Virus record (IMG/VR): IMGVR_UViG_2724679237_000006
Coordinates: 1-52,515 of that record
DNA length: 52,515 nucleotides
Direction: 5' to 3' (one strand)
Source of the DNA: a virus
Lineage: Duplodnaviria; Heunggongvirae; Uroviricota; Caudoviricetes
The position numbers and the translations under genes were made by a program. Below, one piece after another: positions 1,584-35,837 of the stretch. The notes under the pieces were generated by a model. That model was not told where the DNA came from. It did not search any database and was given only the letters and a program-made list of their open reading frames with translations. How positions within the stretch are numbered: position 1 is the first letter of the stretch; every line of letters begins with the position of its first letter.

Positions 1584-2693
1584 TCACTCTGTTTCTGCTA
1601 TCCATTCCGGGATTTTTGCCTCAAGCTCAAGCTGCGTGGTAAAGCCGCTGTTATCAATGGAGTGCTCGGCTTTTGCAATAATCCAGTCCTGATTATCAAT
1701 CTCGCTTTTAAATCCTGTTACCGTGCCATGCATTTCGGGGTAGAGTTCTGCGCGTCCACGCGCCAGCGTGATGGAGAATGATGCGGCTCCGCGTTGTAGC
1801 TGCTGCCACTTTGCCGCCGCTGCGCGTCTTGCTGCCTGCTCGTTCTGATAAGTCTTGCGTAACACAAACACGTTGCCTTCCGCACCTTCCATATAGTCAC
1901 CTTCACGGCTGCTGCTTTTCTCCTTTTTGGGTTTTGGCGGTTTGCGGCGTTTCACGCTGACTTTTTTCTTTTTCCCGTAATTAAGATCAAGCCAGTAAGC
2001 GCGTACCCCCGTATACGCCTCGCGGTCAGCAATGCGAAACTGATGGCGATCGCCGCTGCTGCGTGTGATGGCAAACGATGGTAATGGTTTTCCCTGCGCG
2101 TTCACGCCACCACCTGGCATGATGAATAACAGATTACCGCTTTTTACCGTGGTGATTGCGCCCAGCATTTCCGCCATGCGTGTAAGGAAGGACATGTCGC
2201 TTTCTTCGGTCTGGTCAGCGTGGTCGATTTCAATATCCATCAGCATTTCGCTGATTTGCGGTTTCAGGCCGTATCGGTGAGCAATTGCAGACACCACGCG
2301 TTCAACGGTCACATCATGCCAGGATACTTCGCGCTTGACGTTAAATTCATCCCGAAAATCTGCGCTTCTGGCTGAAATGGTCAGTCTGTCGGGCGGTCCT
2401 TCATGAGCAATTTCATCAACAATGTAAGTGCCTTTTTCTGTCAGCGGTTCGCCTTTCCAGCCAATGAGAACCGTCAGGCGAGCGCCCCGTGGCGGCAACT
2501 GCAACTGACCATCAGCATCATCCAGCGTGATGGTTAGCTGGTCTGCTTCAAATCCCCGGTTGTCGGTCAGTGACAGGCTCATCAGGCGTTCTGTCACACC
2601 GGACAGCGTTTTCCCCTCCGCGAGAATATCAAAATCAGGCATCTTCACGGGGTCAGTACTCTGGTTGAACAGTTGCATGGTGGTGTCAATCAT
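1584..2693 (-). CDS. D: Tail protein D (late control gene D)
   Basis: ORF 1584-2825; probable start at internal ATG 2693 preceded by GGGAGGGAG RBS (MIDTTMQLFNQ...). LSLTDNRGFEADQLTITLDDADGQL region typical of gpD. Confidence 0.85.
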   Translation of the reverse strand: MIDTTMQLFNQSTDPVKMPDFDILAEGKTLSGVTERLMSLSLTDNRGFEADQLTITLDDADGQLQLPPRGARLTVLIGWKGEPLTEKGTYIVDEIAHEGPPDRLTISARSADFRDEFNVKREVSWHDVTVERVVSAIAHRYGLKPQISEMLMDIEIDHADQTEESDMSFLTRMAEMLGAITTVKSGNLLFIMPGGGVNAQGKPLPSFAITRSSGDRHQFRIADREAYTGVRAYWLDLNYGKKKKVSVKRRKPPKPKKEKSSSREGDYMEGAEGNVFVLRKTYQNEQAARRAAAAKWQQLQRGAASFSITLARGRAELYPEMHGTVTGFKSEIDNQDWIIAKAEHSIDNSGFTTQLELEAKIPEWIAETE

Positions 2694-2850
2694 CGGCTCC
2701 CTCCCTGTGCAGCATGGTCGCATGTGTGTGCGGGCGGGGTTACTGCTTTTTGTTGTCGCCGGGCGGCAAGAACGGCGCAGGGATGAGATTACGCGCGTGG
2801 TGGGTGATGATTGTTGCCGAATCATTTAACGGATACAAGGGGCTGGAACT

Positions 2851-4035
2851 ATGAGTGAAACTCGCTTTCATGGCGCCCGCGTTACGGAAAGTACCGACCT
2901 GGTAACAGCAATTAACGACGTTGATTCCAGCGTTATCGGTATCGTGGCAACGGCGGACGATGCGGACGCGAAGCTGTTCCCGCTGAACAAGCCTGCATTA
3001 GTGACCCGCGTCAATGACGTGCTGGGAAAATGCGGGACAACGGGGACGCTGTACCGTGCGCTGAAACCCATTGCAGACCAGGTGAGCACAAAGGTGATCG
3101 TCGTTCGCGTGGCTGAACACAAAGAAGAAGACGGAAAAACACAGGATCAACTGGTTATCGGTGGTTCTGAATCCGACGGCAGCTATACGGGGATGTATGC
3201 GCTGCTTGTTGCAGAGCAGGATGAAAGCATCGGATACCGTCCGCGTATTCTGGCCGCGCCGGGGCTGGACACGGAGGCGGTGACAAAATCCCTGTGCGTG
3301 ATTGCAGGTAAACTGCGCGCGTTTGTGTATGCCTCCTGTCATGGCTGTAACACGATGGCTGAAGCCATTGCATACCGTGAAAAATTCAACGAACGCGAGC
3401 TGATGCTCCTGTGGCCGGACTTCATCGCTTACAACCCGAAAAGTGGCGAGAATGAGGTTTTCCCCGCGCCAGCCTATGCGTGCGGCCTTCGTGCGTACAT
3501 TGACCATGAGCAGGGCTGGCACAAATCGCTGTCCAACGTTCCGGTCAAAAATGTGCTGGGGATGTCCAGGCATGTGTTCTGGTCGTTGCAGGCCGAAGAC
3601 AGCGATGCCAACAGCCTCAACAACAAAGAAATCACAACCATCATTCGCCGCAACGGGTTCCGCTTCTGGGGTAACCGTACGCCGGAAACGAACGCCTACA
3701 TTTTTGAGGTGTATACCCGAATCGCACAGGTGCTGGCTGACACGGTTGCGGAAGCGCAGTTTGAAACCATCGACAGTCCACTGACGCCTGCGAACGTGAA
3801 GGACGTCATCAGTGCCATCAGGGCAAAACTGGATTCGCTGGTTACTGCCGGGAAACTGATTGGCGCATCGTGCTGGTATGACATCGTGGATAACAGCACC
3901 ACAGAATTACGACAGGGGCGCGTGCGTATTCGCTATAAATATACGCCCGTTCCTCCGCTGGAAGATATGGAGCTTTACCAGGCGTTCACTGATGAGTTCT
4001 TTGGTCCTGCATTTGCAGTGCTTGGAGGTGCTTAA
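2851..4035 (+). CDS. FI: Tail sheath protein FI
   Basis: 394 aa; strong similarity to P2 FI as recalled (FPLNKP, KLRAF, RELM..WPDF, EQGWHK.LSNV, IRRDGFRFWGNRT, YTPVPPLE). Confidence 0.9.
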   Translation: MSETRFHGARVTESTDLVTAINDVDSSVIGIVATADDADAKLFPLNKPALVTRVNDVLGKCGTTGTLYRALKPIADQVSTKVIVVRVAEHKEEDGKTQDQLVIGGSESDGSYTGMYALLVAEQDESIGYRPRILAAPGLDTEAVTKSLCVIAGKLRAFVYASCHGCNTMAEAIAYREKFNERELMLLWPDFIAYNPKSGENEVFPAPAYACGLRAYIDHEQGWHKSLSNVPVKNVLGMSRHVFWSLQAEDSDANSLNNKEITTIIRRNGFRFWGNRTPETNAYIFEVYTRIAQVLADTVAEAQFETIDSPLTPANVKDVISAIRAKLDSLVTAGKLIGASCWYDIVDNSTTELRQGRVRIRYKYTPVPPLEDMELYQAFTDEFFGPAFAVLGGA

Positions 4036-4547
4036 TGGCCGTACCAAAACATCTTCGTTTTTTTACGCTGTTTGTGGATGGTGAAAATGAAGTGGGTAAG
4101 GTGACGTCTGTCACCCCGCCTAAACTGACGCGTAAAACCGACAGCTATCGTGGTGGTGGCATGCTGGGAGCGGTGAGTATCGACCTCGGCCTGGACGATT
4201 CCGCGCTTGATGCGAGTTTTGTCATGGGGGGCGCCGTTCGTGCGCTGTTCCTTAAATATGGCGGAACAATGGACGGCACGCTGCTGCGTTTTGCGGGTGA
4301 ATACTACACCGATGCAGAAAGCGACCTGTATGAAATCGAGATGCGCGGGCGTGTGACGGAAATTGATATGGGGGAGGCCAAACAGGGCGAAGCCACGTCA
4401 CACACTTACGCTGTCAAAAACACCTACTACAAGCTGAGTATTAACGATCGTCCGGTGTGGGAAATTGACCTGGTGAACCACATCTACCGGAAGGATGGCA
4501 AGGACATTGTACCCGACCGCATCCGTTCCGCGCTCGGGCTCGGCTGA
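4035..4547 (+). CDS. FII: Tail tube protein FII
   Basis: 170 aa immediately after FI (ATG overlaps the FI stop); size and position match P2 FII. Confidence 0.85.
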   Translation: MAVPKHLRFFTLFVDGENEVGKVTSVTPPKLTRKTDSYRGGGMLGAVSIDLGLDDSALDASFVMGGAVRALFLKYGGTMDGTLLRFAGEYYTDAESDLYEIEMRGRVTEIDMGEAKQGEATSHTYAVKNTYYKLSINDRPVWEIDLVNHIYRKDGKDIVPDRIRSALGLG

Positions 4548-4601
4548 TATGTAATATGCAGGCGGCGCAGTGCGTCGCCCCTGACTGAAAGGAGTTTTCT
4601 G

Positions 4602-4970
4602 ATGAAAGAGACGAAAAATACCGATACTGAAAACGCTGTGGTGGTTGCTGATACTGCGAAAGAAACCGGCGAGCGCGGCGTAAAACTTACCCAGCCAATT
4701 GAGCGAGGCGACGAAAAAATCACGTATGTGGAGATTACCGGGGCTATTGAGCAGGCTGGATCCCTGCGTGGTCTGTCGCTGTCTGATGTGCTGAGTCTGA
4801 AAGCGGAATCCATGTTTACGCTGTTGTCACGCGTGACATCACCGCGACTGGATGAAGTGACGATCAAAAAAATGGCATCCCGTGACTTTATTCAGTTATG
4901 TGTGGTTGCCGTAAATTTTTTGAGCGGTGCGGACTCTGGCGGGAAGAACGAACAGGCGACGGAAGCCTGA
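4602..4970 (+). CDS. E: Tail assembly chaperone E (zero-frame product)
   Basis: Small ORF between FII and tape measure; contains the slippery site at 4915-4921. Confidence 0.7.
   Translation: MKETKNTDTENAVVVADTAKETGERGVKLTQPIERGDEKITYVEITGAIEQAGSLRGLSLSDVLSLKAESMFTLLSRVTSPRLDEVTIKKMASRDFIQLCVVAVNFLSGADSGGKNEQATEA
4915..4921 (+). other. Programmed -1 ribosomal frameshift site (TTTTTTG) giving the E+E' fusion, ending at 5134
   Basis: TTTTTTG heptamer inside E; the -1 frame ORF 4898-5134 continues past the E stop, as in P2 E/E'. Confidence 0.7.
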
Positions 4971-5084
4971 TCACGGTTGTGTGCTTTGAGCACATAGAAG
5001 ACTTTGTGGCAGATATTGCCGTTATTTTTAACTGGTCGCCCGCCGAAATCTTCATGATGACGCCCGGCGAAGTGGTTAGCTGGC

Positions 5085-7922
5085 GTGAGCGGGCGGCACT
5101 TCGCAGTGGGAATGCAGACGATGAAGACTCTTGACATTCGGGTCGCCTTCAGTGCTGTTGACAGGCTGACCCGGCCAGCCGAAAACGCCCGCCGCCTGAT
5201 GGGACAGCTTGGTGACTCCATCCAGCGAACGCAGGGGGCGATCAAAAATCTCGAGCGTCAGGCGCGTTCATTTGAGCGCGCCCGCGATGCTGTCAGTAAA
5301 GCGGATGCTGGCATCGTGAAAGCACGACGCCAGCTTAACGCCCTTCATCAGTTACAACGCACGGGTACGGTGCTCAGCGAAAAACAACAAAAGCTGATGC
5401 AGCAGTTAAGCACCCGGCTTGAACGCCTGAATGAATCGCGCACACGGGAAATTCAGAAAATGCGGGAGCTTGGCGGAGAGCTTAAACGCCACGGTATTTC
5501 CCTGACAGGCAGCGATAACACCATCCAGCAGGCCATCAGACGCACCGAACAGTACAACAACCAGCTTGAACTCGAACGACAGGCGCTTGCGCGTGTAACG
5601 CGGGCGCGTGAGCAGTATTCACGCGCGCAGGAAACAGCGGGAAAACTGAAAACGGGTGGTGCGCTGGCAACTGGTGCGGCAGCGGCTGGCGGCTATGCTG
5701 CCGGGCGTTTTTTGCAGCCCGCTATCGGATTCGGGAAAGAGATGTCCCGTGTGCAGGCGCTGACGCGAATTGACCAGAACAGCCCGCAGTTTAAGGCGCT
5801 GCGTGAGCAGGCGCTAAAGCTCGGCTCTGAAACGCAGTTTACTGCGAGTGATGCCGCCAGTGGGCAGGCATTTCTTGCTATGGCTGGCTTCACACCAGAA
5901 GCCATTCAGGCTGCGCTTCCCGGCGTGCTGAGCATGGCAACGGCTGGCGGTATGGACCTTGGCGAGACGGCGGATATTGGCTCAAATATCCTGACGCAGT
6001 TCGGCCTCTCTGCTGACCAGATGGATCGGGTCGGCGACACACTTACTGCGGCGTTTACCCGTACTAACACCGACCTTCGCGCGCTGGGCGAAACCATGAA
6101 ATATGCAGGTCCGGTGGCGGGTAAGCTGGGAATATCGCTGGAGCAGGCCGCAGCGATGGCGGGCGTGCTGGCGAATATGGGTATCAGAGGGAGTGATGCC
6201 GGGACGGCAATGCGTGCCAGCCTTGCTCGTCTGGCATCACCGCCAAAGGCGGCGGCAGAGGCGCTGAAAGAGCTTGGTGTGGCTGTCTCTGATGCGAACG
6301 GCAAAATGCGCCCGATGGAGGATGTGCTGGCCGACCTTTATAAAGCCACCCGCAAATACGGGGAAGTTGACCGGGTATCGTTCTTTAAGGACATAGCCGG
6401 AGAAGAGGCCTTCACGTCATTTATGGCCCTCGTTGATGCGGCAGGTGACGGTTCCTTACCTAAACTGAGAAAAGAACTTGAAGGCGCGCGCGGTGAGGCT
6501 GAACGCACAGCAAAGGTTATGGCCAACAACCTTGACGGCGATCTGAAATCACTCGACAGTGCATGGGAAGGGTTGCGCATCCGCATTGCAGATCTGATTG
6601 ACGGTCCGCTGCGTTCTGTCACGCAGTGGCTCACGCGGGTGGTATCAAGGGTGACGGCGCTGGCGCAGGCCCATCCGGTACTGACGCGCCAGCTACTGAT
6701 AGCAGGCGGTGCGTTGCTGGCAATGACTGCAACGGTTGGCTCGTTGTCGCTGGCTATTGGTGTGCTTGCTGGCCCGCTGGCAAAACTGCGTCTTGGCTTT
6801 TCCCTCCTGACCGGTTCAATGAATGCTGTCAGGGTCCTGCCAGCACTATGGGGAATGGTGACGGGTTCCGTCTCTTTACTGGGAGGTGCTATCGGGGCGT
6901 TGTTCAGCCCGGTCGGTCTTATCGTAGCTGCGCTTGCCGGAGCTGCCGTTCTCATCTGGAAATACTGGGACCCAATCAGGGCATTTTTTGCCGGGGTGTT
7001 CAGCGGGATTATGGAGCGGCTGGCCCCGTTACGCGAAACCTTTGAACGGTTTGGCCCTGTTTTCGAACTGGTTCGTGATGGCGTGATTCAGGTCTTTAAC
7101 TGGTTTACATCGCTGCTGTCACCGATGGAATCCAGCAAGGAAACGCTGGATAAATGCACCAGTGCTGGCGAGGTATTCGGCAACGTTCTTGGCGGTGCGT
7201 TACAGCTTGTCCTGACGCCTGCCAAAATGCTGCTGGATACGCTGGCATGGATACTTGAAAAACTTGGTGTCCTTCCAGATGAAGCGGAAAGGGCGAGAAA
7301 GAAAATCGAAGACGCGCAGCGTGCGGCCATTCTTCAGGACAAGGTTGCTTTGCTTCAGGGGGACCTGGCAAAAATCAATCCGCCGAAGTCTGCGGAAACA
7401 GGGACCGGAGGCGATAAGCCTAAAGACAATAAGCCGCTCACGGACAACAACACTGGCACGCTACGCAGGCTCAGCAAAATTGCAGATAATACGGGCAAGC
7501 TGGTTGATGAGACGAAAAAGCGTATCGGCCCCGGTGATATTGTCTTTAAGAACCTGCCCCGTGCGCTTGCTGTTCGTGGGGAGTGGCAGGAGCGAAAGGT
7601 TGCGCAGAGCAACAAGGCTCTTCCTGCAATCAATATCACTCCCGCGCCCCCGGCTCCGTTATCTCCGGCGCTGCCCCCTGTTGTTGCAGCAAGCTCCCGT
7701 CCGGTCGTGGAGGCCGCACGTGCGCCAGTTGCGCCCGTTTCCGCATCTTCCCGCAGCCGGGAGGCTGCGACCCCCGGATTTGGTGGTGAAATTCATGTCC
7801 ATCTGCATAACGTTGTTACGCAGAATCCCCGCGAACTGGCGAAACTGGTCGGCGAAATGGTCAGGGCAGAACTGGAGCGGCGTACCCGTGCCGGGCGTGG
7901 CAGTTTTTACGATAAAGATTGA
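5085..7922 (+). CDS. T: Tail tape measure protein T
   Basis: 945 aa; coiled-coil N-terminus, Ala/Gly-rich hydrophobic central segments; position between E/E' and U. Confidence 0.85.
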   Translation: MSGRHFAVGMQTMKTLDIRVAFSAVDRLTRPAENARRLMGQLGDSIQRTQGAIKNLERQARSFERARDAVSKADAGIVKARRQLNALHQLQRTGTVLSEKQQKLMQQLSTRLERLNESRTREIQKMRELGGELKRHGISLTGSDNTIQQAIRRTEQYNNQLELERQALARVTRAREQYSRAQETAGKLKTGGALATGAAAAGGYAAGRFLQPAIGFGKEMSRVQALTRIDQNSPQFKALREQALKLGSETQFTASDAASGQAFLAMAGFTPEAIQAALPGVLSMATAGGMDLGETADIGSNILTQFGLSADQMDRVGDTLTAAFTRTNTDLRALGETMKYAGPVAGKLGISLEQAAAMAGVLANMGIRGSDAGTAMRASLARLASPPKAAAEALKELGVAVSDANGKMRPMEDVLADLYKATRKYGEVDRVSFFKDIAGEEAFTSFMALVDAAGDGSLPKLRKELEGARGEAERTAKVMANNLDGDLKSLDSAWEGLRIRIADLIDGPLRSVTQWLTRVVSRVTALAQAHPVLTRQLLIAGGALLAMTATVGSLSLAIGVLAGPLAKLRLGFSLLTGSMNAVRVLPALWGMVTGSVSLLGGAIGALFSPVGLIVAALAGAAVLIWKYWDPIRAFFAGVFSGIMERLAPLRETFERFGPVFELVRDGVIQVFNWFTSLLSPMESSKETLDKCTSAGEVFGNVLGGALQLVLTPAKMLLDTLAWILEKLGVLPDEAERARKKIEDAQRAAILQDKVALLQGDLAKINPPKSAETGTGGDKPKDNKPLTDNNTGTLRRLSKIADNTGKLVDETKKRIGPGDIVFKNLPRALAVRGEWQERKVAQSNKALPAINITPAPPAPLSPALPPVVAASSRPVVEAARAPVAPVSASSRSREAATPGFGGEIHVHLHNVVTQNPRELAKLVGEMVRAELERRTRAGRGSFYDKD

Positions 7923-7928
7923 GGAGTC

Positions 7929-8423
7929 ATGGCCATGATGATGATCTACGGCATGTTTGTTTTTGAGCTGCGCACGTTGCCGCATCAGCAGTTACAGCAA
8001 AACAAAAGCTGGCGACATGTGAAAAACGAGCGCGTTAACCGTTCCGCAAGCTGGCAGTATATCGGTGCAGGTGATGATCGCATCGTTCTTTCCGGCGTGC
8101 TTTATCCTGAGATTACAGGCGGCGAAGTGTCGCTGTCGCTGCTGACCACGCAGGCGTATATGGGGCGCCCGTGGCCTCTGATTGATGGCGTCGGGCAGAT
8201 TTACGGCATGTATGTTCTGACCGAAACGAGCACGACCCGCTCTGAACTGGATCGCTACGGGAAAGCGAAAAAGATAGAGTTTTCCCTGACCCTTGAACGC
8301 TGTGATGAGGATTTGCGGGAACGCCTGCAATCCTCATCGTTCAGCGATATGCTGTCCGGCCTTAAAGATAAGGTAACATCATCCCTTAACAATGCAGTCA
8401 GCTCAGTTAAAGGGCTGTTCTGA
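7929..8423 (+). CDS. U: Tail protein U
   Basis: 164 aa following T; position and size consistent with P2 gpU. Confidence 0.75.
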   Translation: MAMMMIYGMFVFELRTLPHQQLQQNKSWRHVKNERVNRSASWQYIGAGDDRIVLSGVLYPEITGGEVSLSLLTTQAYMGRPWPLIDGVGQIYGMYVLTETSTTRSELDRYGKAKKIEFSLTLERCDEDLRERLQSSSFSDMLSGLKDKVTSSLNNAVSSVKGLF

Positions 8424-8431
8424 TTTAATGC

Positions 8432-8464
8432 AAAACCGCTAATGATCAGATTAGCGGTTTTTTG
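8432..8464. terminator. Bidirectional rho-independent terminator between convergent U and invertase genes
   Basis: Stem ccgctaat (8436-8443) / attagcgg (8450-8457), loop gatcag, flanked by A-run upstream and T-run downstream. Confidence 0.7.
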
Positions 8465-9069
8465 TTTCCTCTGGTCTTCTCAGTTGTCCCGGTTGATTCT
8501 CCCACGGGGTGGTAACGATAAATCGTCGATATACCAACGCCGTAAATTATGGCCAGTTGTTTTCTGTCATGGCCGTTTTTAATCAGCCTTGCTATTTGCT
8601 CATGTTGCTCTTTTGTCAGTTTCGGACGACGCCCACCAATGCGCCCCTGTGCGCGGGCTGCTGCCAGTCCTGCCCTGGTACGTTCAACTATCAGTTCGCG
8701 TTCCATTTCAGCTAAAGCCCCCATGACGTGAAAAAAGAAGCGCCCCATGGGTGTTGATGTGTCAATGCTGTCCGTCAGACTACGAAAATTGACACCTTTT
8801 TCCCGTAATTCCTCAATCAGTGTGATCAGGTGTTTCATGCTTCTGCCCAGCCTGTCCAGTTTCCAGACAACGAGCGTATCGCCTTCTGACAGTGTTCTGA
8901 GCAGTTTTTTCAATCCCGGTCTGGCTGACTTTGTTCCGCTGATTTTATCTTCAAAAATCAGTTCACATCCTGCGCTATTGAGCGCATTGCGTTGCAAATC
9001 CGTGTTCTGGTCATTTGTTGACACGCGTACATAGCCAATCAGCACATTGAATCTCCCGCTCAAAAGCAC
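8446..9069 (-). CDS. Serine recombinase, DNA invertase of the Hin/Gin/Cin/Pin family
   Basis: LIGYVRVSTNDQNTDLQRNAL...VVWKLDRLGRSMKHLI...MGALAEMERELI..RT.AGLAAAR motifs match Pin/Gin closely; active-site Ser in YVRVSTNDQ. True start may be the GTG at 9045. Confidence 0.9.
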   Translation of the reverse strand: MLLSGRFNVLIGYVRVSTNDQNTDLQRNALNSAGCELIFEDKISGTKSARPGLKKLLRTLSEGDTLVVWKLDRLGRSMKHLITLIEELREKGVNFRSLTDSIDTSTPMGRFFFHVMGALAEMERELIVERTRAGLAAARAQGRIGGRRPKLTKEQHEQIARLIKNGHDRKQLAIIYGVGISTIYRYHPVGESTGTTEKTRGNKKPLI

Positions 9070-10037
9070 AAATCATGCCATGTGGGCCAGAAACGACCAT
9101 TATCAAAACCGGTGGGCTTACTTTTGAATACGACTCAATCCTTGCCTGGATTCGGAATTCTGACTGGGCGAAGATTGGATTTAAAAATGATGCCGATGGT
9201 GACACTGATTCATTCATGTGGTTTGAAACGGGAGATAACGGCAATGAATATTTCAAATGGAGAAGCAAACAAAGCACAACAACAAAAGACCTGATGACGC
9301 TGAAATGGGATGCGCTAAATATTCTTGTTAATGCCATTGTAAATGGCGAAGTCATATCAAAATCAGCAAACGGCCTTCGTATTGCTTATGGTAATTACGG
9401 ATTCTTTATTCGTAATGATGGTTCAAACACATACTTCATGTTGACAAACTCCGGTGACAACATGGGGACTTATAACGGATTAAGGCCATTATGGATTAAT
9501 AACGCTACTGGCGCTGTTTCGATGGGGCGTGGCCTTAATGTTTCAGGGGAGACGCTTTCAGACCGTTTTGCTATTAACAGCAGTAATGGTATGTGGATTC
9601 AGATGCGCGATAACAACGCTATCTTTGGGAAAAATATAGTTAACACTGGTAGCGCTCAGGCGTTGCTTCGCCAGAATCACGCTGACCGCAAGTTCATGAT
9701 AGGTGGACTGGGGAACAAGCAATTTGGCATCTACATGATTAATAACTCAAGGACAGCCAATGGTACTGACGGTCAGGCGTATATGGACAATAACGGGAAC
9801 TGGCTTTGTGGTTCACAAATTATTCCCGGAAATTATGGAAATTTTGATTCCCGCTATGTGCGTGACGTTCGCATGGGAGCTAACCAGAGCGGAATAAAAT
9901 GGGGTGGCGAAGGTGGAACACTCCCTGCGGGGTATGTTCTTACAGGTGGTAACTTTGATGACGACTGGGAGTGGCCTGTCTATGCGCCTGTTCAGAAATA
10001 TATTAATGGTCAGTGGTACAATGTAGGACGTGCTTAA
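9051..10037 (+). CDS. Alternative (currently unfused) tail-fibre C-terminal variable domain
   Basis: Open frame starts right after a stop at 9048-9050, lacks a conserved N-terminus, and ends [11 protein letters not shown], paralleling the expressed H C-terminus INGTWYNAGSI. Confidence 0.7.
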
Positions 10038-10566
10038 TATGCAGCATTTAAAAAATATTAAAGCAGGAAATCCAAAAACTATCGAACAGTATCAACTTAC
10101 AAAAGAATTTGATGTTGTCTGGTTATGGTCGGAAGAAGGTAAGAACTGGTATGAGGAACAAAAAAACTTCCAGCCAGACACGTTAAAAGTGGCATATAAC
10201 CAGGAGGGTATTATTTGCTGCATAGAGAAAGACGCATCCCTGATTAATCCAGAGGGAATGAGTGTTATTGAGTTACCCAATATTACGGTAAACCGACGCG
10301 CTGATATTTCCGGCAACTGGATGATTAAGGATGGTGCTGTAATTAAAAGAGTCTATACAGAAGATGAATTACAACAGCAGGCTGAATCACAAAAAGCAGC
10401 TTTGCTTTCCGAAGCTGAATCAGTCATCCGGCTGCTGGAACGTGCCGTCAGGATGAATCTGGCAACAGATGAGGAACGTACACGGCTGGATGGCTGGGAA
10501 CGCTACAGCGTTCTGCTCAGCCGCGTGGATACGGCAAATCCTGAATGGCCACAAAAGCCTGAATAA
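10030..10566 (+). CDS. Alternative tail-fibre assembly protein
   Basis: 178 aa; N-terminus [21 protein letters not shown] almost identical to the oppositely oriented assembly protein at 10593-11126, C-terminus diverged. Confidence 0.8.
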
Positions 10567-10592
10567 AAAATAAGGCCCGAACGGGCCTTCTC

Positions 10593-11126
10593 TCATTCTG
10601 GTTGTTCGGGGAACGTGACTGGCAGGACGGAGGTATCCGTAGACTCTACTTTCTGCGCGTAGAGCAGCCACTCGGTCAATTTTTGTTTATTCTCAGCAGA
10701 AATAATTCCAAGTCGTAGCTGAGAATCCCATAGCTGAGTTTTATCCCTGACGAGTTGTAACAGGTTTTGCTTCTCATTTTCCGCCTGTTGTCTCTGTTCT
10801 TCTTCGGTATATTCCCGCTTTATCACTGCGCCATCTTTGAACATCCAGTTACCAGAAATATCGACCCGCCTATTGGCTGTAATATCAGGAACCTCAACAA
10901 CGCTTAAACCTTCGGGATTAATTGTCGATACATCCTTATCTACAGCCACAATGATTCCATCGGCAGTGTAAGCAAATTTTATTGTATCTTCCTGAAAGTT
11001 TTTCTGTTCCTCATACCAGTTTTTATCGTCATCAGAATACAACCAGACAACGCCAAATTGTCGTGTTAATTTATATTGTTCTACGGTTTTGGGGTTTCCT
11101 GCTTTAATATTTTTTAAATGCATCAT
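10593..11126 (-). CDS. G: Tail-fibre assembly protein (expressed orientation)
   Basis: 177 aa directly downstream of H on the same strand. Confidence 0.8.
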   Translation of the reverse strand: MMHLKNIKAGNPKTVEQYKLTRQFGVVWLYSDDDKNWYEEQKNFQEDTIKFAYTADGIIVAVDKDVSTINPEGLSVVEVPDITANRRVDISGNWMFKDGAVIKREYTEEEQRQQAENEKQNLLQLVRDKTQLWDSQLRLGIISAENKQKLTEWLLYAQKVESTDTSVLPVTFPEQPE

Positions 11127-11128
11127 AA

Positions 11129-13357
11129 TTAAATACTTCCCGCATTATACCAGGTGCCATTGATACAATATTGCACTGGCCTTGCCTGTGTTGTATCAAT
11201 AAGTTCATCTTTGTTTGAGTTAACGGAACCTGTAACAACGTAACCAGATTTATCGCCCCAGCCAGGACCATTCCATGTTTGCGCTGATGATTTTGTACCT
11301 AATCGAATACCTGTAATAAATTGTGAATTACATTCCGCTTTAGTATATGCCCCAACATCTGCTGCTGAAGGTTTTCGGGTTGTGGTGTAAAACTCTGACC
11401 AGTCAGCCTCGAAGCCATAACCATCACGCGCTGAACGATAATAAATACCACCGTTCTTATAATTTACGCGGAACTGTACAGCAGGGCAGCTACCCGCGTT
11501 CATATTGAAGTGGAGGATTAATGTCGATGCGCCACCAATATTTGCGTTATATACCCCGCTATTCCAGTTCCAGCCAACAGCTTTATCATTTCCGACAGTG
11601 CTTCCTGTTTGCCCTAAAGCAAAAGCGGCCTGCTGATTTTTCGTGTTGTAGTCACGTCGCCAGCCAGGTAAATACTCTGAACCGTGGTTAATATATATAA
11701 ATTGCGCATTAGTGGTGCCACCACTGCTAGAGGTACTCGGTGTGGTTATACGAATGGTCATGGCGCCTTTATTGCCCATAACTTCAATAACGCAACCCGC
11801 AAGGTGAATAAGTCCACATCCGGTGTCAGTAATAATTTTATTATTGCCGTATGACCATGAGCATTTACACAGCCAGTATGGATGATTGAAGGCCCACTGA
11901 GATTCCAGCCATTCAATAAATTGCGCCGTCGTCCAGTTTCCTGCACCTGTGCTAATAGAACCATGAAAAGAGCGGCAAGCACCTATTGTTTGCGTAAATT
12001 TATCTTTGTTTGGAATATCTGCGCCGTTCTGGTCTTTCTGCAATGCGCCAGCGGCCTGATTTACCGTTTCCTGCAAACCGAGGTATTCGATAACGGCGGC
12101 AACGGTCGCTTTAGCCAGAATATCCCGCCCGACTTTTGTCAGAGTTGCCAGGCTGGCGGTGTCATTCCCTGTAAAATACGGAAACCTGTCTGCCGCAGTA
12201 GCAAGCCCAGCCAGCGCCGTCAGGGTGGCGTCTTTCGGCTGCTTGCCCGCAAGCGCGTTGGTCATAGTAGTCGCAAAGTTCGGGTCATTGCCCAATGCCG
12301 CAGCCAGCTCGTTCAGCGTATTCAGTGCGTCAGGTGATGAGTCTACAAGTGCGGCAATCGCGGCCATAACGAACGCCGTGTTTGCTATCTGAGTATTGTT
12401 AGTACCCTTTGGCGCAGTTGGTGCGGTTGGCGTTCCGGTGAGTGCCGGACTCGACAGCGGCGCTTTCTTGTTCGTTTCATCCATTACCGCCTTAACAGCT
12501 TTTGGCGTCGCAGCCAGCGTTTCAGACGGGCTGTTGGTTGCACTACTGAGCTGGACAAGGCCTTTTCGCGCTGTGGTGGCGTCCTGTGCAGTATATTTCC
12601 CGTTAGCAAGGTCATAGGCGGCCTTTACCGCTTTCGGCGTTGCCGCCATCATTTCAGACACGCTGTTAGTGGCGCTACTGAGCTGGACAAGGCCTTTTTG
12701 CTCTGTGGTGGCATCCTGTGCGGTATATTTCCTGTTAGCAAGGTCATATGCAGCCTTTACCGCTTTCGGCGTTGCGGCCAGTGCTTCAGACGTGCTGTTG
12801 GTCGCACTGCTTAACTGAGTAAAGCCTTTTGCGGTCAGCGAGGCATCCGGGTGACGTCGTGACTGTTCATGCTCTTTTAGTTTGTCATCCACGTAATCCA
12901 CCGTGGCCATCACCATGGTGTTATCCACGGTAAGCGCCACGGTGGCCGTGCTGGATACGGTCAGGATGGTGCGAAATGTTTGCGCACGCCCGGACCCTTC
13001 GGCAACGGCTGGCTTGTAACTTTCGGCAGTATTTCCCACCGCGATTAAATCGCCGTGCTCATCAAACACACCAATTTCCCGGATCCAGAATCCGCCCGTT
13101 TCTGGAGGAATAACCAGCTCCGCAATAATGCGGTTCTGATGTGTTGCGTCCAGGAAGACGCGATTAACGGTATGTCGCCACACCTCATGCACAAGACGGG
13201 TCTGCTTACTGTCTGGCGTGGGTAAAGTACCGCCGCCGTCACCCACGGCCATATGTGTCAGGCGGACGGGTTTGCCATCTGGTGCGGCTGCCTGTGCTAA
13301 TTTTTTTGCACCCGTATCAGTGATAACGGTTTTAAATTTTCGTGTTGTGGTACTCAT
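11129..13357 (-). CDS. H: Tail fibre protein H
   Basis: 742 aa; N-terminus (KFKTVITDTGAKKLA...HMAVGDGGG...HEVWRH...IAELVIPPE.GGFW.RE.G) matches P2 H as recalled. Confidence 0.85.
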   Translation of the reverse strand: MSTTTRKFKTVITDTGAKKLAQAAAPDGKPVRLTHMAVGDGGGTLPTPDSKQTRLVHEVWRHTVNRVFLDATHQNRIIAELVIPPETGGFWIREIGVFDEHGDLIAVGNTAESYKPAVAEGSGRAQTFRTILTVSSTATVALTVDNTMVMATVDYVDDKLKEHEQSRRHPDASLTAKGFTQLSSATNSTSEALAATPKAVKAAYDLANRKYTAQDATTEQKGLVQLSSATNSVSEMMAATPKAVKAAYDLANGKYTAQDATTARKGLVQLSSATNSPSETLAATPKAVKAVMDETNKKAPLSSPALTGTPTAPTAPKGTNNTQIANTAFVMAAIAALVDSSPDALNTLNELAAALGNDPNFATTMTNALAGKQPKDATLTALAGLATAADRFPYFTGNDTASLATLTKVGRDILAKATVAAVIEYLGLQETVNQAAGALQKDQNGADIPNKDKFTQTIGACRSFHGSISTGAGNWTTAQFIEWLESQWAFNHPYWLCKCSWSYGNNKIITDTGCGLIHLAGCVIEVMGNKGAMTIRITTPSTSSSGGTTNAQFIYINHGSEYLPGWRRDYNTKNQQAAFALGQTGSTVGNDKAVGWNWNSGVYNANIGGASTLILHFNMNAGSCPAVQFRVNYKNGGIYYRSARDGYGFEADWSEFYTTTRKPSAADVGAYTKAECNSQFITGIRLGTKSSAQTWNGPGWGDKSGYVVTGSVNSNKDELIDTTQARPVQYCINGTWYNAGSI
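12440..12850 (-). repeat. Tandem in-frame repeats (about 132 bp / 44 aa, 2-3 copies) inside H
   Basis: Peptide unit KG(L/F)(V/T)QLSSATNS.SE..AATPKAVKAAYDLAN.KYTAQDATT repeated; corresponding DNA repeats are visible. Confidence 0.7.
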
Positions 13358-13359
13358 GC

Positions 13360-13890
13360 TTAATCGCCTGGATAAATGGTGATAACTTCACCGTCATAAG
13401 TTGCCGCCGCTGCGAAAATATCCCCCGGGATTTCCTGAATGATATTCAGTCCTGTCATGTGGCGGCTGACCGGGCGGGCATCAGCAATCAACCGCTCCAT
13501 TTCCAGATACATTTCCTCCGTCACACCGCTGTCCAGCGTGCCGACTTCAACGGTAAATGTTCCCGGTTCTCCGCCGAACTCCCACCACTCAGACACGCGA
13601 ATGAGGTATCCCAGCGGCTCAATGGCCCGGCGCAGTGCGCTGATGGTCCCCTTGTGTCGGTGTATCAGCCACGCATCGCGAATCACCTGGCGCTTTGTTT
13701 CCTCCGGCCAGTTGCGGTCCCAGCGGTCAACGGAAAACGCCCAGGCGAGATAAGGCAGCAGATGCACCGGGCATGTGTCCGGCGACCACAGCGTGTTGAG
13801 GTCTACCGGAATGTCTGTAATGCGCGTTCCGACGGCTTCGGCACAACGCATGAAATTGCTGGCTGATGGTGGTAACAGTGAATTACTCAT
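13360..13890 (-). CDS. I: Baseplate protein I
   Basis: Matches P2 gpI as recalled (LWNPDTCP..LLP.LAWAFSVDRWD, IRDA...H.KGTI.A.RR..EPLGYLI.V.EWWE, MERLIADA.P.SRH). Start assumed at MSNSLL (13890). Confidence 0.85.
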   Translation of the reverse strand: MSNSLLPPSASNFMRCAEAVGTRITDIPVDLNTLWSPDTCPVHLLPYLAWAFSVDRWDRNWPEETKRQVIRDAWLIHRHKGTISALRRAIEPLGYLIRVSEWWEFGGEPGTFTVEVGTLDSGVTEEMYLEMERLIADARPVSRHMTGLNIIQEIPGDIFAAAATYDGEVITIYPGD

Positions 13891-14779
13891 TGCGCCCACC
13901 TTCGCTGATGGTGAATGACTCACAACGCGCCGCCTGTATGTCGCTGATGGCTATATTCTGGGTGGGTTCGATTATCTCCACGCGTTGCACGCCGTGCACA
14001 TGAAGTGCGGCAGCAATGGCTGACAGCGCCACGTCCTGACCGATAAGTCCCTGCTCAGACAGCCACTTCCTGAACGACGATTCCGCAGCGGCCAGAATAG
14101 GTTCGGATTCCGGGCCGGGGTAAAAGTACAGTTTTGCATTCAGCCGCCATGTCACGATTCTGGCGCTCTGTACGGTCAGGCGGTCTGCCACCGGGCGGGT
14201 ATCCTCTGCATTCAGAACGGCGCGAACGGTATTAAGCAACGCCTCCGTTGCCGTGCCGTCGCCTTCAGTGGACAGGATGGAAACCGTCACATTTGCCGGA
14301 GACGGACTGATAGCCCGCGCATCACGCACCAGACCGCTGGCGCTGCGGGCAAAATACTCGTATGCACCTGACGGGCCAGCAACACTCAGGCCGTCGTACG
14401 CCCGCTGCGCCCGCAGTCTCAGCGAGGTGTCGCTCTCCATCACCGCGTCGGTGGTATCCGTTGCCGGAGTGATAACCAGGCGCTTTGTGTTCATATTGCC
14501 CGCGAGGTTGTCCAGGTTTGTCCCTGAACCGTGGCTTAACATGCAGGCGCGTGCGCCCTCGTTAACCCGCTGGCGTAACAGCATTTCACGAAACGACATG
14601 GTTTGAGCGATAACGTTCAGGGGTTCTGATTCCAGCTCCAGCGCGGCGGAAACGGCTTCACGCTGTTCGGCGGGATAAGCCGCAATCATCATGGCCTTTG
14701 TGTCAGCCAGAATTGCCTCAAAATCAGGCTCCGCGATGATGGCGGGTTCCGGTAACTGTGAAAGGTCAACGGCAGGCAT
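13883..14779 (-). CDS. J: Baseplate assembly protein J
   Basis: 298 aa between W and I in P2 order. Confidence 0.8.
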   Translation of the reverse strand: MPAVDLSQLPEPAIIAEPDFEAILADTKAMMIAAYPAEQREAVSAALELESEPLNVIAQTMSFREMLLRQRVNEGARACMLSHGSGTNLDNLAGNMNTKRLVITPATDTTDAVMESDTSLRLRAQRAYDGLSVAGPSGAYEYFARSASGLVRDARAISPSPANVTVSILSTEGDGTATEALLNTVRAVLNAEDTRPVADRLTVQSARIVTWRLNAKLYFYPGPESEPILAAAESSFRKWLSEQGLIGQDVALSAIAAALHVHGVQRVEIIEPTQNIAISDIQAARCESFTISEGGRNE

Positions 14780-14782
14780 GAT

Positions 14783-15133
14783 TTACTCCCTCAGCGTGAT
14801 GGTTAATTCAACATTCTGCATGGTCTGAATGACAGTACCCGATAGTGTCACCCCGGCGCGGCCTCCCGCCTTCCAGACAACATCAATGGCGCTCAGGGCA
14901 ATGCGTGGCTCCCATCGTGTCAGTGCAATCACAGCAGCGCTCATGCATTGCAGACGCGTGGTGTTATTCATGGGTTCGTCAATCAAATCAGGGACAAGAC
15001 TGCCATATTCCCGTCGCATAACCCGGCTTGCCAGCGGGGTGGTCAGGATGTCCCTGACTGACTGTTTCAGGTGCTCCATATCGTTCAGGTTTCCCGTCCC
15101 GTCCGGGTTCATTCCTGTGTAGCGGGTTGTCAC
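14783..15133 (-). CDS. W: Baseplate protein W (gp25-like)
   Basis: 116 aa; position between V and J. Confidence 0.75.
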   Translation of the reverse strand: MTTRYTGMNPDGTGNLNDMEHLKQSVRDILTTPLASRVMRREYGSLVPDLIDEPMNNTTRLQCMSAAVIALTRWEPRIALSAIDVVWKAGGRAGVTLSGTVIQTMQNVELTITLRE

Positions 15134-15711
15134 TGCGGTCCTCCTGTCGAATCGCTGCCACCTTTAACGCCACCGTGTTTATGCGTATGCACAGTGATGC
15201 CGTTTGAGGTGAAATTGCCGCCGCTGTGCGTGATATTGCCGCTCATCTTTCCCCCTTTTGTGACGTCAATCTCGGCTGTTTTCAGTAGGTTTGTGCACTC
15301 CACGACAGGTGTGTCCAGTTTCACGCTGACGGATGCCTGCAGGGTGGCCGTTTGCACGCCGCTGGCGCTCAGTGCGCCTGCGTCCGCGTCGTAGCAGAAC
15401 ACCGCGCCATCCGGCGCGCTGACCACGATTTCTTTCAGGCTTTTTCCGGGGGCCGGAATGTCATCGCTCCACAGGCTGCCAATTATCATGGCTGTTTCCG
15501 GGTTGCCGCCGATGCAGGCAATTGCCACCTGTTCGCCCACTGATGGCGGCAGCCACACATTGAAGGCTCCCGCGCGCGTGGTGTTCCAGCGCAACCAGCC
15601 TGTTTCCAGTCCGCCGCTGAGGACCCGCACGCACCAGGATTTCTCATCAATTTCAGAGATGATCCCGGTGCGGATGATATTGCTCAGCAGTCTCATAAGT
15701 TCTGCGTTCAC
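15130..15711 (-). CDS. V: Baseplate spike protein V
   Basis: 193 aa; N-terminus MNAELMRLLSNIIRTGIISEID typical of gpV. Confidence 0.8.
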   Translation of the reverse strand: MNAELMRLLSNIIRTGIISEIDEKSWCVRVLSGGLETGWLRWNTTRAGAFNVWLPPSVGEQVAIACIGGNPETAMIIGSLWSDDIPAPGKSLKEIVVSAPDGAVFCYDADAGALSASGVQTATLQASVSVKLDTPVVECTNLLKTAEIDVTKGGKMSGNITHSGGNFTSNGITVHTHKHGGVKGGSDSTGGPQ

Positions 15712-16343
15712 TGTACTGCCTCCGCAATCCGGCCCAGCACCGTGTTATAAATCAGGCGCTCATCCGCCTGACTGATACCCAGCAGCTCACGTACCGGATA
15801 ATTGGTGAAAATACCCGGCGCAACCTGATCGCGTTCACCGAACTGATGAACGCGTGCAATACGTGCGGCCACGCCGCTGTAACCCACTGTCACACCGGAG
15901 GCATCCGCGCGGGCTTTCAGGTAACGGGCGGTGCGCAGTTTTACGAACATGGGGACGTGCTTTGTGCTGTCCTGGTTGATACGTCGGGTGCGTATTTCCA
16001 GAAAACGGTCGATGTCATCCCGGTAAAACGTGCGGATATTGTTTTTATCCTCATCCCACCCGGTAATGGTTCGCCCGTATTTCCCTGTGTCGTGATGCCA
16101 GTTTTTCAGCGTGCGTGTTTCGTTATTCCAGATAAAGCGAATGCGCTCCTGTATCCGGGTTACGCGGCGTCTGCGTGGTGTCCATGCGGTCCCGTCCGGC
16201 GCTTTCTGTGACCGGATACGTGCCTGCTGGGCGCGGCGTAAATCCTGTGCCAGCTTTCTGGCGATGTTATTGATGGCCTGCTGATTCAGGCTGTCGCGGA
16301 TAGCCTCGAAGGTTTCATCCGCGCGGGTGAATGCCTTATCCAT
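15708..16343 (-). CDS. Tail completion / virion morphogenesis protein (S-like)
   Basis: 211 aa at the S position between R and V; larger than P2 S. Confidence 0.6.
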   Translation of the reverse strand: MDKAFTRADETFEAIRDSLNQQAINNIARKLAQDLRRAQQARIRSQKAPDGTAWTPRRRRVTRIQERIRFIWNNETRTLKNWHHDTGKYGRTITGWDEDKNNIRTFYRDDIDRFLEIRTRRINQDSTKHVPMFVKLRTARYLKARADASGVTVGYSGVAARIARVHQFGERDQVAPGIFTNYPVRELLGISQADERLIYNTVLGRIAEAVQ

Positions 16344-16803
16344 CGCTTTCGCCCCACGTCACATCCTGGAATACATGTGACCAGTCGCCTTCGGAAGATG
16401 GCAGGCGGGGTTTTGGCTCCGGCAGGTGTTCTGCCTGTGGTGTGCCCTGACTGCTGCGCGTGACGCGAACGCGCTCCCGCAGGGGCAGTGTAAACAGGAT
16501 GTCGGCGCTGTCATCGTCATTAATAACGGCAGAAAATTTGATGTCCTGATTACGCTCAGGGTTGAGCAACAACTGCGGCTGATTCTCCGACAACCACGCC
16601 AGCAGCGGCAGAGTCAGGTCGTCCAGCTCCCCGGCGTAATCCATGACAAACATCACCATCTGATAGCGGTAAGCAAACGAGGGAGTTTCTCCGGTCGTTT
16701 CAATGTTGCCGCTCTCCACGAAAATGGTGAATTTCTCCGGGTTGGCGTGACACCATCGACATGAACGGGTCATGGCTTCACGCAGGGAATCAGTTTTCAG
16801 CAT
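16336..16803 (-). CDS. R: Tail completion protein R
   Basis: 155 aa directly after the lysis cassette, as in P2. Confidence 0.7.
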   Translation of the reverse strand: MLKTDSLREAMTRSCRWCHANPEKFTIFVESGNIETTGETPSFAYRYQMVMFVMDYAGELDDLTLPLLAWLSENQPQLLLNPERNQDIKFSAVINDDDSADILFTLPLRERVRVTRSSQGTPQAEHLPEPKPRLPSSEGDWSHVFQDVTWGESDG

Positions 16804-25414: not shown

Positions 25415-26374
25415 TTACTCCTTATCCATAGCGTACAGACCGTTAACCAGAGCAAACTGTGGCACCCCGTCTGTGATGAAATTCGCATTGACTCCATAGA
25501 CTTCATGGACTGCGGGTGCCACAATCTCCGCTCCTCCACCGACAACCAGCACCCGCCCGTAACCCGAAAAGCCCGCGAGTGCGCGGATCACGCGTTGTTT
25601 TAGTGTCTCCTCCTTTTCACGAATAACTGCCATCAGGCTGTTGTAATGCGCGTCATTGTGGATGTGCCGGCGCAGCCAGGCTTCATCGTGACGATGTTCA
25701 ATAACGGTACTGGCGACGTGGTGACTGGTACGCATGCCGTTGGCGGCCATCACCGACAACACGGCATCGGTCATCAGGGAAACGCCCACATGTGGATCGC
25801 AAAATACCTGGCTGATGCCTGCCAGTTGCCCCTGAACCTTTGCCACATCCAGCGTTGTTCCGCCTAAATCCACAATCAGCAGAGATTCAAACGGACTCAT
25901 GTCAGCCAGTGCCTTAAAGCCAGCCGGAATGGATTCAGGCATAACCCGCACGTTGCGGATAGTGAATGCTTCACCGTTCTGGTACTCCACAGGGCGCAGG
26001 ACATTCGCTTTTTTGCGGTTGATGTTGGCCATGTCCGGCTGTGCGTTTGTATCGAAATACTCGCTCAGTGGCAGAGTGACAACCACGTCCACTTCCTGTG
26101 GTGTGATACCTGATTTGACCAGCGCGTGATGAATGGCAATGACATTCACATCGCTGTACTGGTATTGCGTGTCGGTCGTCTGGACAAAGCGATCGCTGAC
26201 CGGATCAAAACCATAGCGCACGCCATCAAGCATGTAGTTCGCGGGCTGCGTGCCACCGAACGGCGCAGACCATTCCGACTTGAAGCTGTTCGGGCTGATG
26301 GCGTTGCGGCGTTCGCCGTTCTCAGTCCATGCCAGCTTGATGTTGGTGGAGCCGTCGTCGATGCAAATTTTCAT
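25415..26374 (-). CDS. parM: ParM actin-like segregation ATPase
   Basis: MKICIDDGSTNIKLAW...ISPNSF...YSDVNV.A.HHAL..SG......VD.V.T.PL.E......IDLGGTTLD...GGGAE match R1 ParM/StbA along the full length. Confidence 0.9.
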   Translation of the reverse strand: MKICIDDGSTNIKLAWTENGERRNAISPNSFKSEWSAPFGGTQPANYMLDGVRYGFDPVSDRFVQTTDTQYQYSDVNVIAIHHALVKSGITPQEVDVVVTLPLSEYFDTNAQPDMANINRKKANVLRPVEYQNGEAFTIRNVRVMPESIPAGFKALADMSPFESLLIVDLGGTTLDVAKVQGQLAGISQVFCDPHVGVSLMTDAVLSVMAANGMRTSHHVASTVIEHRHDEAWLRRHIHNDAHYNSLMAVIREKEETLKQRVIRALAGFSGYGRVLVVGGGAEIVAPAVHEVYGVNANFITDGVPQFALVNGLYAMDKE

Positions 26375-26402: not shown

Positions 26403-26516
26403 TCGTTTACGGGATTCTGAAATCCCGCTTTTGCCTGTTTTGTGCGCGTTTCATATATCGCGGCGTGTTTTTCGCTCATTTACGGGATTTGTGAATCCCG
26501 TTTCTGTCTGTTTTTT
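26403..26516. repeat. parC-like centromere: two ~40-bp direct repeats each with a 16-bp palindrome, upstream of parM
   Basis: tttacgggattctgaaatcccg...ctgtttt (26404-26442) and tttacgggatttgtgaatcccg...ctgtttt (26476-26516); inner palindromes gggattctgaaatccc and gggatttgtgaatccc. Confidence 0.55.
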
Positions 26517-35605: not shown

Positions 35606-35837
35606 TAAATATTGCTCCAAAATCAGGTTCATCATCTTTTCGCGTCGTCACCTCCTGTAAATTGCGAAATTTTATTGGGTTCATGAAATGGCCCCAGGTT
35701 GTTTTTGGGTGTCCGTCAGCCCTTTCCATGAAGAAAATTCCAGCCCGGCGAAGAGCCTCACATTGCTTTGATTTAAGTGGGCTTCCCGTCAGCTCGACCA
35801 TTTCTTCTCTGGTGATTATGTCGTGATCGCTTTTCAT
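35574..35837 (-). CDS. Excisionase-like / small DNA-binding protein
   Basis: 87-aa ORF immediately upstream of and overlapping int; ITREEMVELTGSPLKSKQCEALRRAG is HTH-like. Confidence 0.4.
   Translation of the reverse strand: MKSDHDIITREEMVELTGSPLKSKQCEALRRAGIFFMERADGHPKTTWGHFMNPIKFRNLQEVTTRKDDEPDFGAIFNGRKEKEPSR

Follow-up and report, generated by a model that had tools for sequence, protein, structure and literature searches.

The window, by which we mean the whole 52,515-nucleotide (52.5 kb) stretch of viral DNA that was analysed, is the public contig BBVU01000028.1 and contains a P2-family prophage of the P88-like kind (Peduoviridae, genus Xuanwuvirus). It is 91.3% identical in DNA to Escherichia phage P88 over 7.6 kb with the same gene order. 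Across D, FI-U and the invertase region both P88 and the related Citrobacter phage phiSM show 91% DNA identity; the order of genes agrees as well, and their FI-U block too lies on the opposite strand. In this prophage a constant part of a tail-fibre gene is followed by a crossover site, a variable end with its chaperone, an inverted chaperone and variable end, a second crossover site and an invertase gene (Table 1), an arrangement shared with the G segment of Mu, the C segment of P1 and the P segment of e14. The orientation of the FI-FII-E-T-U block opposite to H and G was considered as a rearrangement made by the invertase, which was rejected since the same layout is found in P88 and in 71 E. 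coli prophages.

Table 1. Features of the invertible tail-fibre locus, in coordinates of the window.
Feature	Position	Strand	Details
Terminator-like hairpin	8432-8461		12-bp stem, A and T runs either side; consensus scan only
Gin/Pin-type serine DNA invertase	8446-9045	minus	199 aa; Pfam Resolvase and HTH_7
Candidate recombinational enhancer (predicted Fis sites)	8950-9012	minus	invertase gene nt 34-96
Outer half-site of invertase-proximal crossover site	9100-9110		TTATCAAAACC; by comparison with intact copies
Probable assembly gap	9108		N in BBVU01000028.1, A in window
Silent alternative fibre end H'v	9109-10037	plus	Gp34_trimer domain; 85% identical in protein to Mu S variable part
Silent assembly chaperone G'	10039-10566	plus	175 aa; 76% identical to Mu U
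Expressed assembly chaperone G	10593-11126	minus	Caudo_TAP, 177 aa; 81% identical to Mu U'
Tail-fibre protein H, expressed	11129-13357	minus	742 aa; ends INGTWYNAGSI
H expressed variable C-terminal end	11129-12079	minus	residues ~427-742; gp37_C domain
Complete 26-bp crossover site	12068-12093		TTCCTGCAAACC GA GGTATTCGATAA; inside H, codons IEYLGLQE (residue 423)
H constant N-terminal part	12082-13357	minus	collar domain and three Phage_fiber_2 repeats

The invertase open reading frame runs from 8446 to 9069 on the minus strand, with matches to the Pfam families Resolvase (3e-52) and HTH_7 (1e-12), and the conserved start is a GTG at 9045 that gives MLIGYVRVSTNDQ. The protein has the features of a small serine recombinase, namely an N-terminal catalytic domain, an active-site serine (Ser9, within the conserved YVRVSTNDQ) and a C-terminal helix-turn-helix; it has 72% identity with Mu Gin and 85% with its E. 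coli relatives, and an identical protein is encoded on 17 public contigs. A Pin/Gin-like serine invertase beside tail-fibre cassettes, as an earlier note made from the sequence had proposed, is borne out by these domains and by the likeness to Gin. The terminator-like hairpin separates gpU, on the plus strand, from the invertase gene. Within the invertase gene two Fis-like 15-mers lie 48 bp apart, centred at about +41 and +89 and 108 bp from the core of the crossover site, and may form a recombinational enhancer; third-codon-position conservation across 35 invertase genes peaks at nt 22-42 and 70-102, a test that is confounded by two-fold-degenerate codons. In invertase systems of this class the enhancer lies within the invertase gene, roughly 100 bp from one crossover site, and has two Fis sites spaced ~48 bp apart.

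The segment beyond the invertase holds two alternative fibre C-termini, each with its own chaperone, and the constant N-terminal part lies outside it. The expressed H and the assembly protein downstream of it were recognised in the earlier note and stand as described there, the variable end of H sharing 81% protein identity with the variable part of Mu S'. The second cassette, which had been called silent and said to lack an N-terminal domain, is equally as stated: the plus-strand open reading frame 9075-10037 encodes 320 aa with a Gp34_trimer domain and has neither a collar nor an N-terminal domain, and it is followed by its own chaperone. The two cassettes had been described as head-to-head; they are indeed opposed, but they converge tail-to-tail, with 3' ends that face each other at 10566 and 10593. 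Over 9109-12093 the DNA has ~82% identity with the G segment that is inverted in phage Mu, and taken against both the Mu G and the P1 C segments, where boundaries are annotated, the identity is 82-83%.

A position-weight scan of the 52.5 kb found one full crossover site, that at 12068-12093, with a score of 30.6; the next match scores 14.5, and 20 shuffles reached at most 13.6. The runner-up (2544-2569, in gene D) barely exceeds the shuffles and is probably a chance match, and no further sites were found by the scan of the 52.5 kb beyond the full site and its invertase-side partner. The core dinucleotide of the full site lies at 12080-12081, and this breakpoint is confirmed both by a flipped relative (L005) and by a deletion in two others (L007 and L008) that stops exactly at the core. 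The half-site that the earlier note had placed at 9100-9110 is present, and in intact copies of the locus it belongs to a full site that reads TTATCAAAAACC TC GGTTTGCAGGAA. In such copies the sites form an inverted repeat of 34 bp, perfect over 25 bp and with TC at its core, and paired inverted sites with matching TC and GA cores occur in intact relatives including phage P88. The extent of 8446-11850 given previously for the locus falls short, as the complete second crossover site lies outside that range, and the statement that the crossover sites could not be defined to the base needs amending in part: both are mapped to the base in intact copies, whereas the invertase-side site of the window itself is incomplete at 9108.

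Comparison of near-identical prophages shows both orientations of the segment. Among relatives that encode the identical invertase and exceed 99.8% DNA identity, two (L006 and L009) have the orientation of the window, one (L005) is flipped, and a further two (L011 and L012) are flipped at the junctions. L005, 99.8-99.9% identical to the window, has 9109-12093 in the opposite orientation; its outer half-sites have stayed in place while the inner flanks have changed sides, and between flipped and unflipped copies the breakpoints fall within the 34-bp inverted repeat. A flipped relative encodes an H of 755 aa bearing the other C-terminal end, and there are stand-alone contigs of ~3.04 kb with the repeat at both ends. 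More distant relatives (~83% identical) in complete E. coli genomes are similarly divided: one orientation is collinear with 71 of them, the other with 63. The proposal of an invertase-controlled switch between two tail-fibre ends, which had been staked on more than one orientation and on inverted repeats at the junctions, agrees with the data on both counts, and the comparison of junctions that had been suggested yields the 34-bp repeat with its TC core in intact copies.

It could be argued that the locus is a decayed relic, with for example an inactive enhancer or invertase, and that the differences in orientation are old events or the result of homologous recombination between the repeats. 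The enhancer is only a candidate, which leaves some room for such a view, but the invertase is an intact protein and the same on all 17 contigs, and opposite orientations are seen between prophages ~10 substitutions apart in 12.5 kb, so that the flips are recent. A perfect repeat of only 25 bp is too short for efficient RecA-dependent recombination. Furthermore several assemblies end exactly at the repeat boundaries, as is expected from mixed populations. In L007 and L008 2.3 kb have been lost, with the junction placed precisely on the TC core dinucleotide at a pseudo-site, CCCGTTATTG TC CATATACG. We regard a relic as very improbable.

A more specific objection comes from the window itself, which as given has one full site and one outer half-site and, read literally, would be unable to invert with a single complete crossover site. 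Its junction at 9108/9109 reads TTATCAAAA followed by CCGGTGGGC, where intact relatives are 66 bases longer; the bases that are absent (~67 nt, 66-67 by count), AACCTCGGTTTGCAGGAAACGGTAAACAAGGCTGGTAACGCCGTCCAAAAGACAGGCGATACCTTGT, comprise the inner half-site together with the TC core, as well as 22 codons that belong to the silent cassette, and it was because of their absence that the repeats had escaped the earlier note. A genuine in-frame deletion that removed core and inner half-site, locking the prophage in its Mu S'/U'-like state with the other cassette permanently silent, was the explanation first favoured. It fits with the 66-nt difference being the only sizeable indel in 12.5 kb relative to 99.9% identical relatives, and with the position-weight scan of 8400-12040, which found no other partner site with a TC core (the best candidate scores -3.4, and the remnant at 9100 has -12 or -1.3 according to the register used). 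The cuts of serine invertases are staggered by 2 bp and fall at the centre of the site, and ligation needs matching core bases, and in Hin one core mismatch is already enough to block recombinant ligation (PMC4817059).

Nevertheless, the half-missing site is best explained as a single-N assembly gap and not as biology. The public record has an N exactly at 9108, which is how scaffold joins whose size is not determined are usually marked, and because of this N it also has an X at codon 12 of the silent open reading frame. Contigs assembled independently from DRR017174 and DRR017175 show 100% identity with the window either side of the junction (6,411 nt and 2,420 nt) and have the 66 absent nt attached to the half-site next to the invertase; every other sample has 1-5 mismatches to the window, and it is strongly suggested that these two runs are the reads of the isolate behind BBVU01. 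A literature search on BBVU01 and the DRR accessions gave no results. Elsewhere in the GTDB representative genomes, IMG/VR and the JGI metagenomes the deletion junction is absent, and an exact look-up of the 320-aa silent reading frame returned no match. The junction also lacks microhomology and lies 3 nt off the core, which makes it unlike an invertase product, a point that becomes moot if the gap is artefactual. The deletion was dropped in view of the N and of the missing bases in the DRR017174 and DRR017175 contigs, and we now consider a locked prophage very unlikely. Were the lesion at 9108 real, it would be a natural locked allele of a host-range switch and, taken with L007 and L008, would make invertase errors a recurrent route by which such switches decay in the wild, a suggestion to which we give slightly less credence still. 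A promoter, TTCAAA-18-GATAAT (9128-9099), that the deletion would have newly made was likewise discarded; it is a consensus match only and rests on the artefactual junction.

The locus is very probably (a probability of roughly 0.85) an invertible tail-fibre switch of the Mu G-segment type in a P88-like prophage of the P2 family. By analogy with the rest of the Hin/Gin family, the serine invertase would bind as dimers to two 26-bp inverted sites, of which one lies in H and the other a short way upstream of the invertase gene, and together with a Fis-bound enhancer in the 5' part of that gene these would form an invertasome. Recombination would then flip a segment of ~3.03 kb, so that the constant ~426 N-terminal residues of H are fused either to the gp37_C-type end, which is Mu S'-like and the state of the window, or to the Gp34_trimer-type end, which is Mu S-like, each flip placing the matching assembly chaperone downstream. 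We would anticipate that phage of the two states differ in receptor specificity, given the 81-85% protein identity to Mu S' and S; going by Mu, specificity would be of the K-12-LPS type in the S-like state and of the Citrobacter/Shigella sonnei type in the S'-like state. Catalysis, Fis dependence and an effect on host range are all attributed to this locus from its better known counterparts; if they hold, a small enzyme that flips DNA exchanges one fibre tip for another and may thereby change the bacteria to which the phage can attach.

In keeping with this assignment, the Mu G segment and Gin have the same order of parts, ~82% DNA identity across the whole segment with two cassettes that correspond to S/U and S'/U', and inverted repeats of 34 bp whose TC core falls in the same codons (LGLQE), and the window invertase, like Gin, adjoins one repeat; the state of the window corresponds to Mu G(-). 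Unlike in Mu, the switch here sits in a P2-family phage and the fibre has a constant part that resembles P2 H (742 aa, with collar and fibre repeats) and not Mu S. The P1 C segment with Cin, the e14 P segment with Pin and Salmonella Hin share the recombinase subfamily and 26-bp sites with a 2-bp core, and the C segment is 83% identical in DNA over the segment. The repeats of P1 are 0.6 kb long, unlike those of the locus described here, whilst e14-type relatives have TT/AA cores and Hin flips a promoter instead of gene ends. Shufflons differ in using the Rci tyrosine recombinase and multiple sfx sites, three or more in number; the recombinase of the window is of the serine type, and it serves only two cassettes with no further sites.

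Within the P2 family, P88 and phiSM have the same paired sites with TC/GA cores, though their cassette sequences are only ~80% identical to those of the window, and the paper on P88 makes no mention of inversion (PMC5285337). In P2-like prophages of EPEC E2348/69 an invertase and inverted repeats switch the C-terminus of the tail fibre; there inversion was demonstrated by experiment, both states coexisted in culture, and variants were detected down to a ratio of 1:100 (Goldberg et al. 2014, PMC4272514). By its published description that system is alike in being an invertase-driven tail-fibre switch in a P2-like prophage, and it differs in that one of the EPEC loci, with three repeats and four variants, is shufflon-like, as against two cassettes and two sites here. 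This kind of switch is already known, the locus being one further copy of a textbook phage host-range switch, and the biological interest is small given that the prophage family already has an annotated invertase and that inversion has been shown experimentally. The more general point concerns the data: near-identical prophages in public assemblies sufficed to map both sites to the base and to show both orientations without wet-lab work, and a single-N scaffold join turned into a base can mimic a biologically meaningful loss of a recombination site. Short-read assemblies break at the repeats of invertible segments. Finally, one DRR017174 contig starts exactly at the repeat boundary, which hints that both orientations are present in the strain.

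For the tail fibre switch of this prophage the parts are established, as are, among near-identical prophages, both orientations and breakpoints that lie within a repeat, with the sites resolved to the base in intact copies. The ORF map and Pfam scans identify the window as a P2-family prophage, and its genes are laid out as follows.

Gene layout of the P2-family prophage in the window
Feature	Position	Strand
gpD	1584-2825	-
Sheath FI, tube FII, E, tape measure T, gpU	2851-8423	+
Serine recombinase	8446-9045	-
Fibre C-terminal ORF without N-terminus, Gp34_trimer domain	9075-10037	+
Caudo_TAP chaperone	10039-10566	+
Second chaperone	10593-11126	-
Tail fibre H, 742 aa: collar domain, three fibre repeats, gp37_C end	11129-13357	-
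I, J, W, V and remaining P2 late genes	from 13360	-

An earlier note had claimed an invertase-controlled switch at 8446-11850 with head-to-head cassettes; all the C-terminal peptides that it quoted are found in the window, but the two cassettes are in fact convergent. The constant part of H contains three tandem 132-bp repeats (12464-12830, 73-86% identical) encoding Phage_fiber_2 repeats; H ranges from 570 to 756 aa in relatives, and changes in repeat number possibly account for these differences. Over the rest of its length the prophage shares 91% identity, and the same gene order, with Escherichia phage P88 (Peduoviridae, Xuanwuvirus). Unlike in canonical P2, the tail operon FI-FII-E-T-U (2851-8423) is encoded on the other strand from gpD (1584-2825) and from H and its chaperone G (within 10593-16800); the same layout occurs in P88 and 71 E. 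coli prophages and is therefore a genus-level arrangement, not an anomaly. Given this opposite orientation, gpD must be served by a separate promoter in the gap at 2694-2850.

Inside H, at 12068-12093 (codons IEYLGLQE, residue 423) and beyond the range considered in the earlier note, there is a perfect gix-type 26-mer, TTCCTGCAAACC GA GGTATTCGATAA. A scan with a position-weight matrix made from half-sites of Mu and the window's prophage family gave no second full site in the 52.5 kb: this one scores 30.6, the runner-up 14.5, and no shuffled sequence exceeds 13.6. The TTATCAAAACC motif reported previously was recovered at 9100-9110; the invertase-adjacent site has only its outer half-site (that toward the flank) in the window, and alignment with E. 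coli relatives and Mu revealed that 66 nt are absent after 9108.

Relatives were collected by an exact-protein look-up of the invertase, which returned 17 contigs, followed by BLAST and direct reading of junctions. Two of these contigs, L006 and L009, are oriented like the window, are >99.9% identical to it over 12.5 kb and retain both sites, GCCGCCG TTATCGAATACC TC GGTTTGCAGGAA ACGGTAAAtcagg on the H side and GACCA TTATCAAAAACC TC GGTTTGCAGGAA ACGGTAAAcaagg on the invertase side, which form an inverted repeat of 34 bp whose two mismatches both fall within the outer half-site. A third contig, L005, is just as close to the window but carries 9109-12093 in the reverse orientation; its outer half-sites stay with their own flanks whilst the inner sequences are swapped, so the exchange took place inside ACCTCGGTTTGCAGGAAACGGTAAA, as would fit cleavage at the TC core. 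The flipped junction is also found at contig ends in L011 and L012. In other samples the invertible segment forms separate contigs of ~3.04 kb (L102-L105), bounded at both ends by ACCTCGGTTTGCAGG (ACCTCGG...), as expected of an assembly graph that forks at a repeat with both orientations; contigs L012-L014 end at this same repeat. Such breaks are the hallmark of sequenced cultures in which the orientations were mixed. Of the complete E. coli genomes, 71 align collinearly with the window as it stands and 63 with the flipped form.

The 66 nt might have been lost in a real in-frame deletion, destroying the core and inner half-site and locking the switch. It is the sole sizeable indel relative to near-identical relatives, its junction is absent from every other collection searched, the matrix scan found no other partner site in the window, and one core mismatch already stops recombinant ligation by Hin (PMC4817059). 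However, the public record of the window, BBVU01000028.1 (GCA_001514885.1), reached through a look-up of the silent-cassette chaperone G', has N at 9108, exactly at the junction, where the window has A, the only difference over the stretches compared (2621-10422 and 7539-13066). Furthermore, independent Logan assemblies of the read sets DRR017174 and DRR017175 match the window at 100.000% identity across 2621-9031 (6,411 nt) and 9109-11528 (2,420 nt), where all other samples have 1-5 base differences, and their contigs start CAAAAACCTCGGTTTGCAGGAAACGGTAAACAAGG...CTTGTCCGGTGGG, hence the missing bases are present and joined to the invertase-side outer half-site. On these two observations the locked switch was dropped, a real deletion being very improbable. 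Read most simply, the N stands for a scaffold join of undetermined size located at the inverted repeat, in which case the real genome would have an intact site, TTATCAAAAACC TC GGTTTGCAGGAA; the source's ambiguity or gap character was apparently replaced by a base, so that the crossover site falsely shows a 66-bp deletion. This serves as a warning, as a single character standing in for an assembly join mimicked the loss of a recombination site.

Contigs L007 and L008, from two samples, carry a 2.3-kb deletion that joins window position 12080 to 9787 (at 5150-5240 of each contig), taking out the two chaperones along with most of each cassette and leaving a truncated 423-aa H. The junction, TTATCGAATACC TC CATATACG, runs from the H-side half-site through the TC core into a pseudo-site of the silent cassette and falls exactly on the core dinucleotide, the only part that this poor pseudo-site shares. 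It looks like mis-targeting by the invertase in direct orientation at a matching core.

The switches of Mu, P1 and e14 are textbook cases, and a DNA invertase is annotated in P88-like phages. In a megablast against phage records, 9109-12093 matched Mu's invertible G segment and P1's C segment at 82-83% identity, stopping exactly at the annotated G-segment boundaries; Mu S/U are the counterparts of the silent cassette (85% and 76% protein identity) and S'/U' of the expressed one (81% and 81%). Inversion of tail fibre ends has been shown by experiment in EPEC P2-like prophages (PMC4272514), and with the Mu, P1 and e14 cases and the P88-like annotation this makes the locus a routine example of a system already known, base-level mapping of the crossover sites being a useful by-product. 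Following the Hin and Gin literature (PMC4817059, PMC3798978), invertase dimers on the two sites would assemble with a Fis-bound enhancer into an invertasome, the DNA would be cleaved at the core with a 2-nt stagger, and half of the complex would turn 180 degrees before the ends are religated. The flip swaps the last ~316-329 residues of H together with the downstream chaperone, giving a 742-aa or 755-aa fibre, and by analogy with Mu would be expected to alter receptor use.

The invertase shares 72% identity with Gin, the catalytic serine motif included. Its gene contains a candidate enhancer, two Fis-like 15-mers near +41 and +89 with a spacing of 48 bp, roughly 108 bp away from the core; in 35 related genes third-position conservation peaks there, a test confounded by codon degeneracy. 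The invertase gene of E. coli relatives is a mosaic (2060-2647 of the relative L002, compared with gin at 4264-4845 of Mu, L001), the first ~240 nt being nearly the same as Mu gin and the sequence from about nt 420 onwards nearest to the window's gene.

Elsewhere, a ParM/StbA-type actin-like segregation protein (25415-26374, minus strand; Pfam 7e-82), unusual cargo for an integrated P2-like prophage, is encoded beside the P2-type replication gene A (26476-29271). The left end (1-1600) is still prophage, with E. coli matches of at most 99% identity annotated as ogr/Delta zinc-finger and hok/gef toxin and no host flank visible, and the window as a whole yielded no tRNA gene. There are two back-to-back integrase genes (33296-34297, plus; 34589-35635, minus), and a 450-aa ORF without a Pfam match lies at 50855-52207. 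The P2-like prophage adjoins a second, lambdoid prophage, which encodes a SMEK-domain protein (49422-50321, minus; Pfam 3e-23) and whose RepO/DnaB-type replication genes (42269-44667) are 98% identical to those of E. coli prophages.
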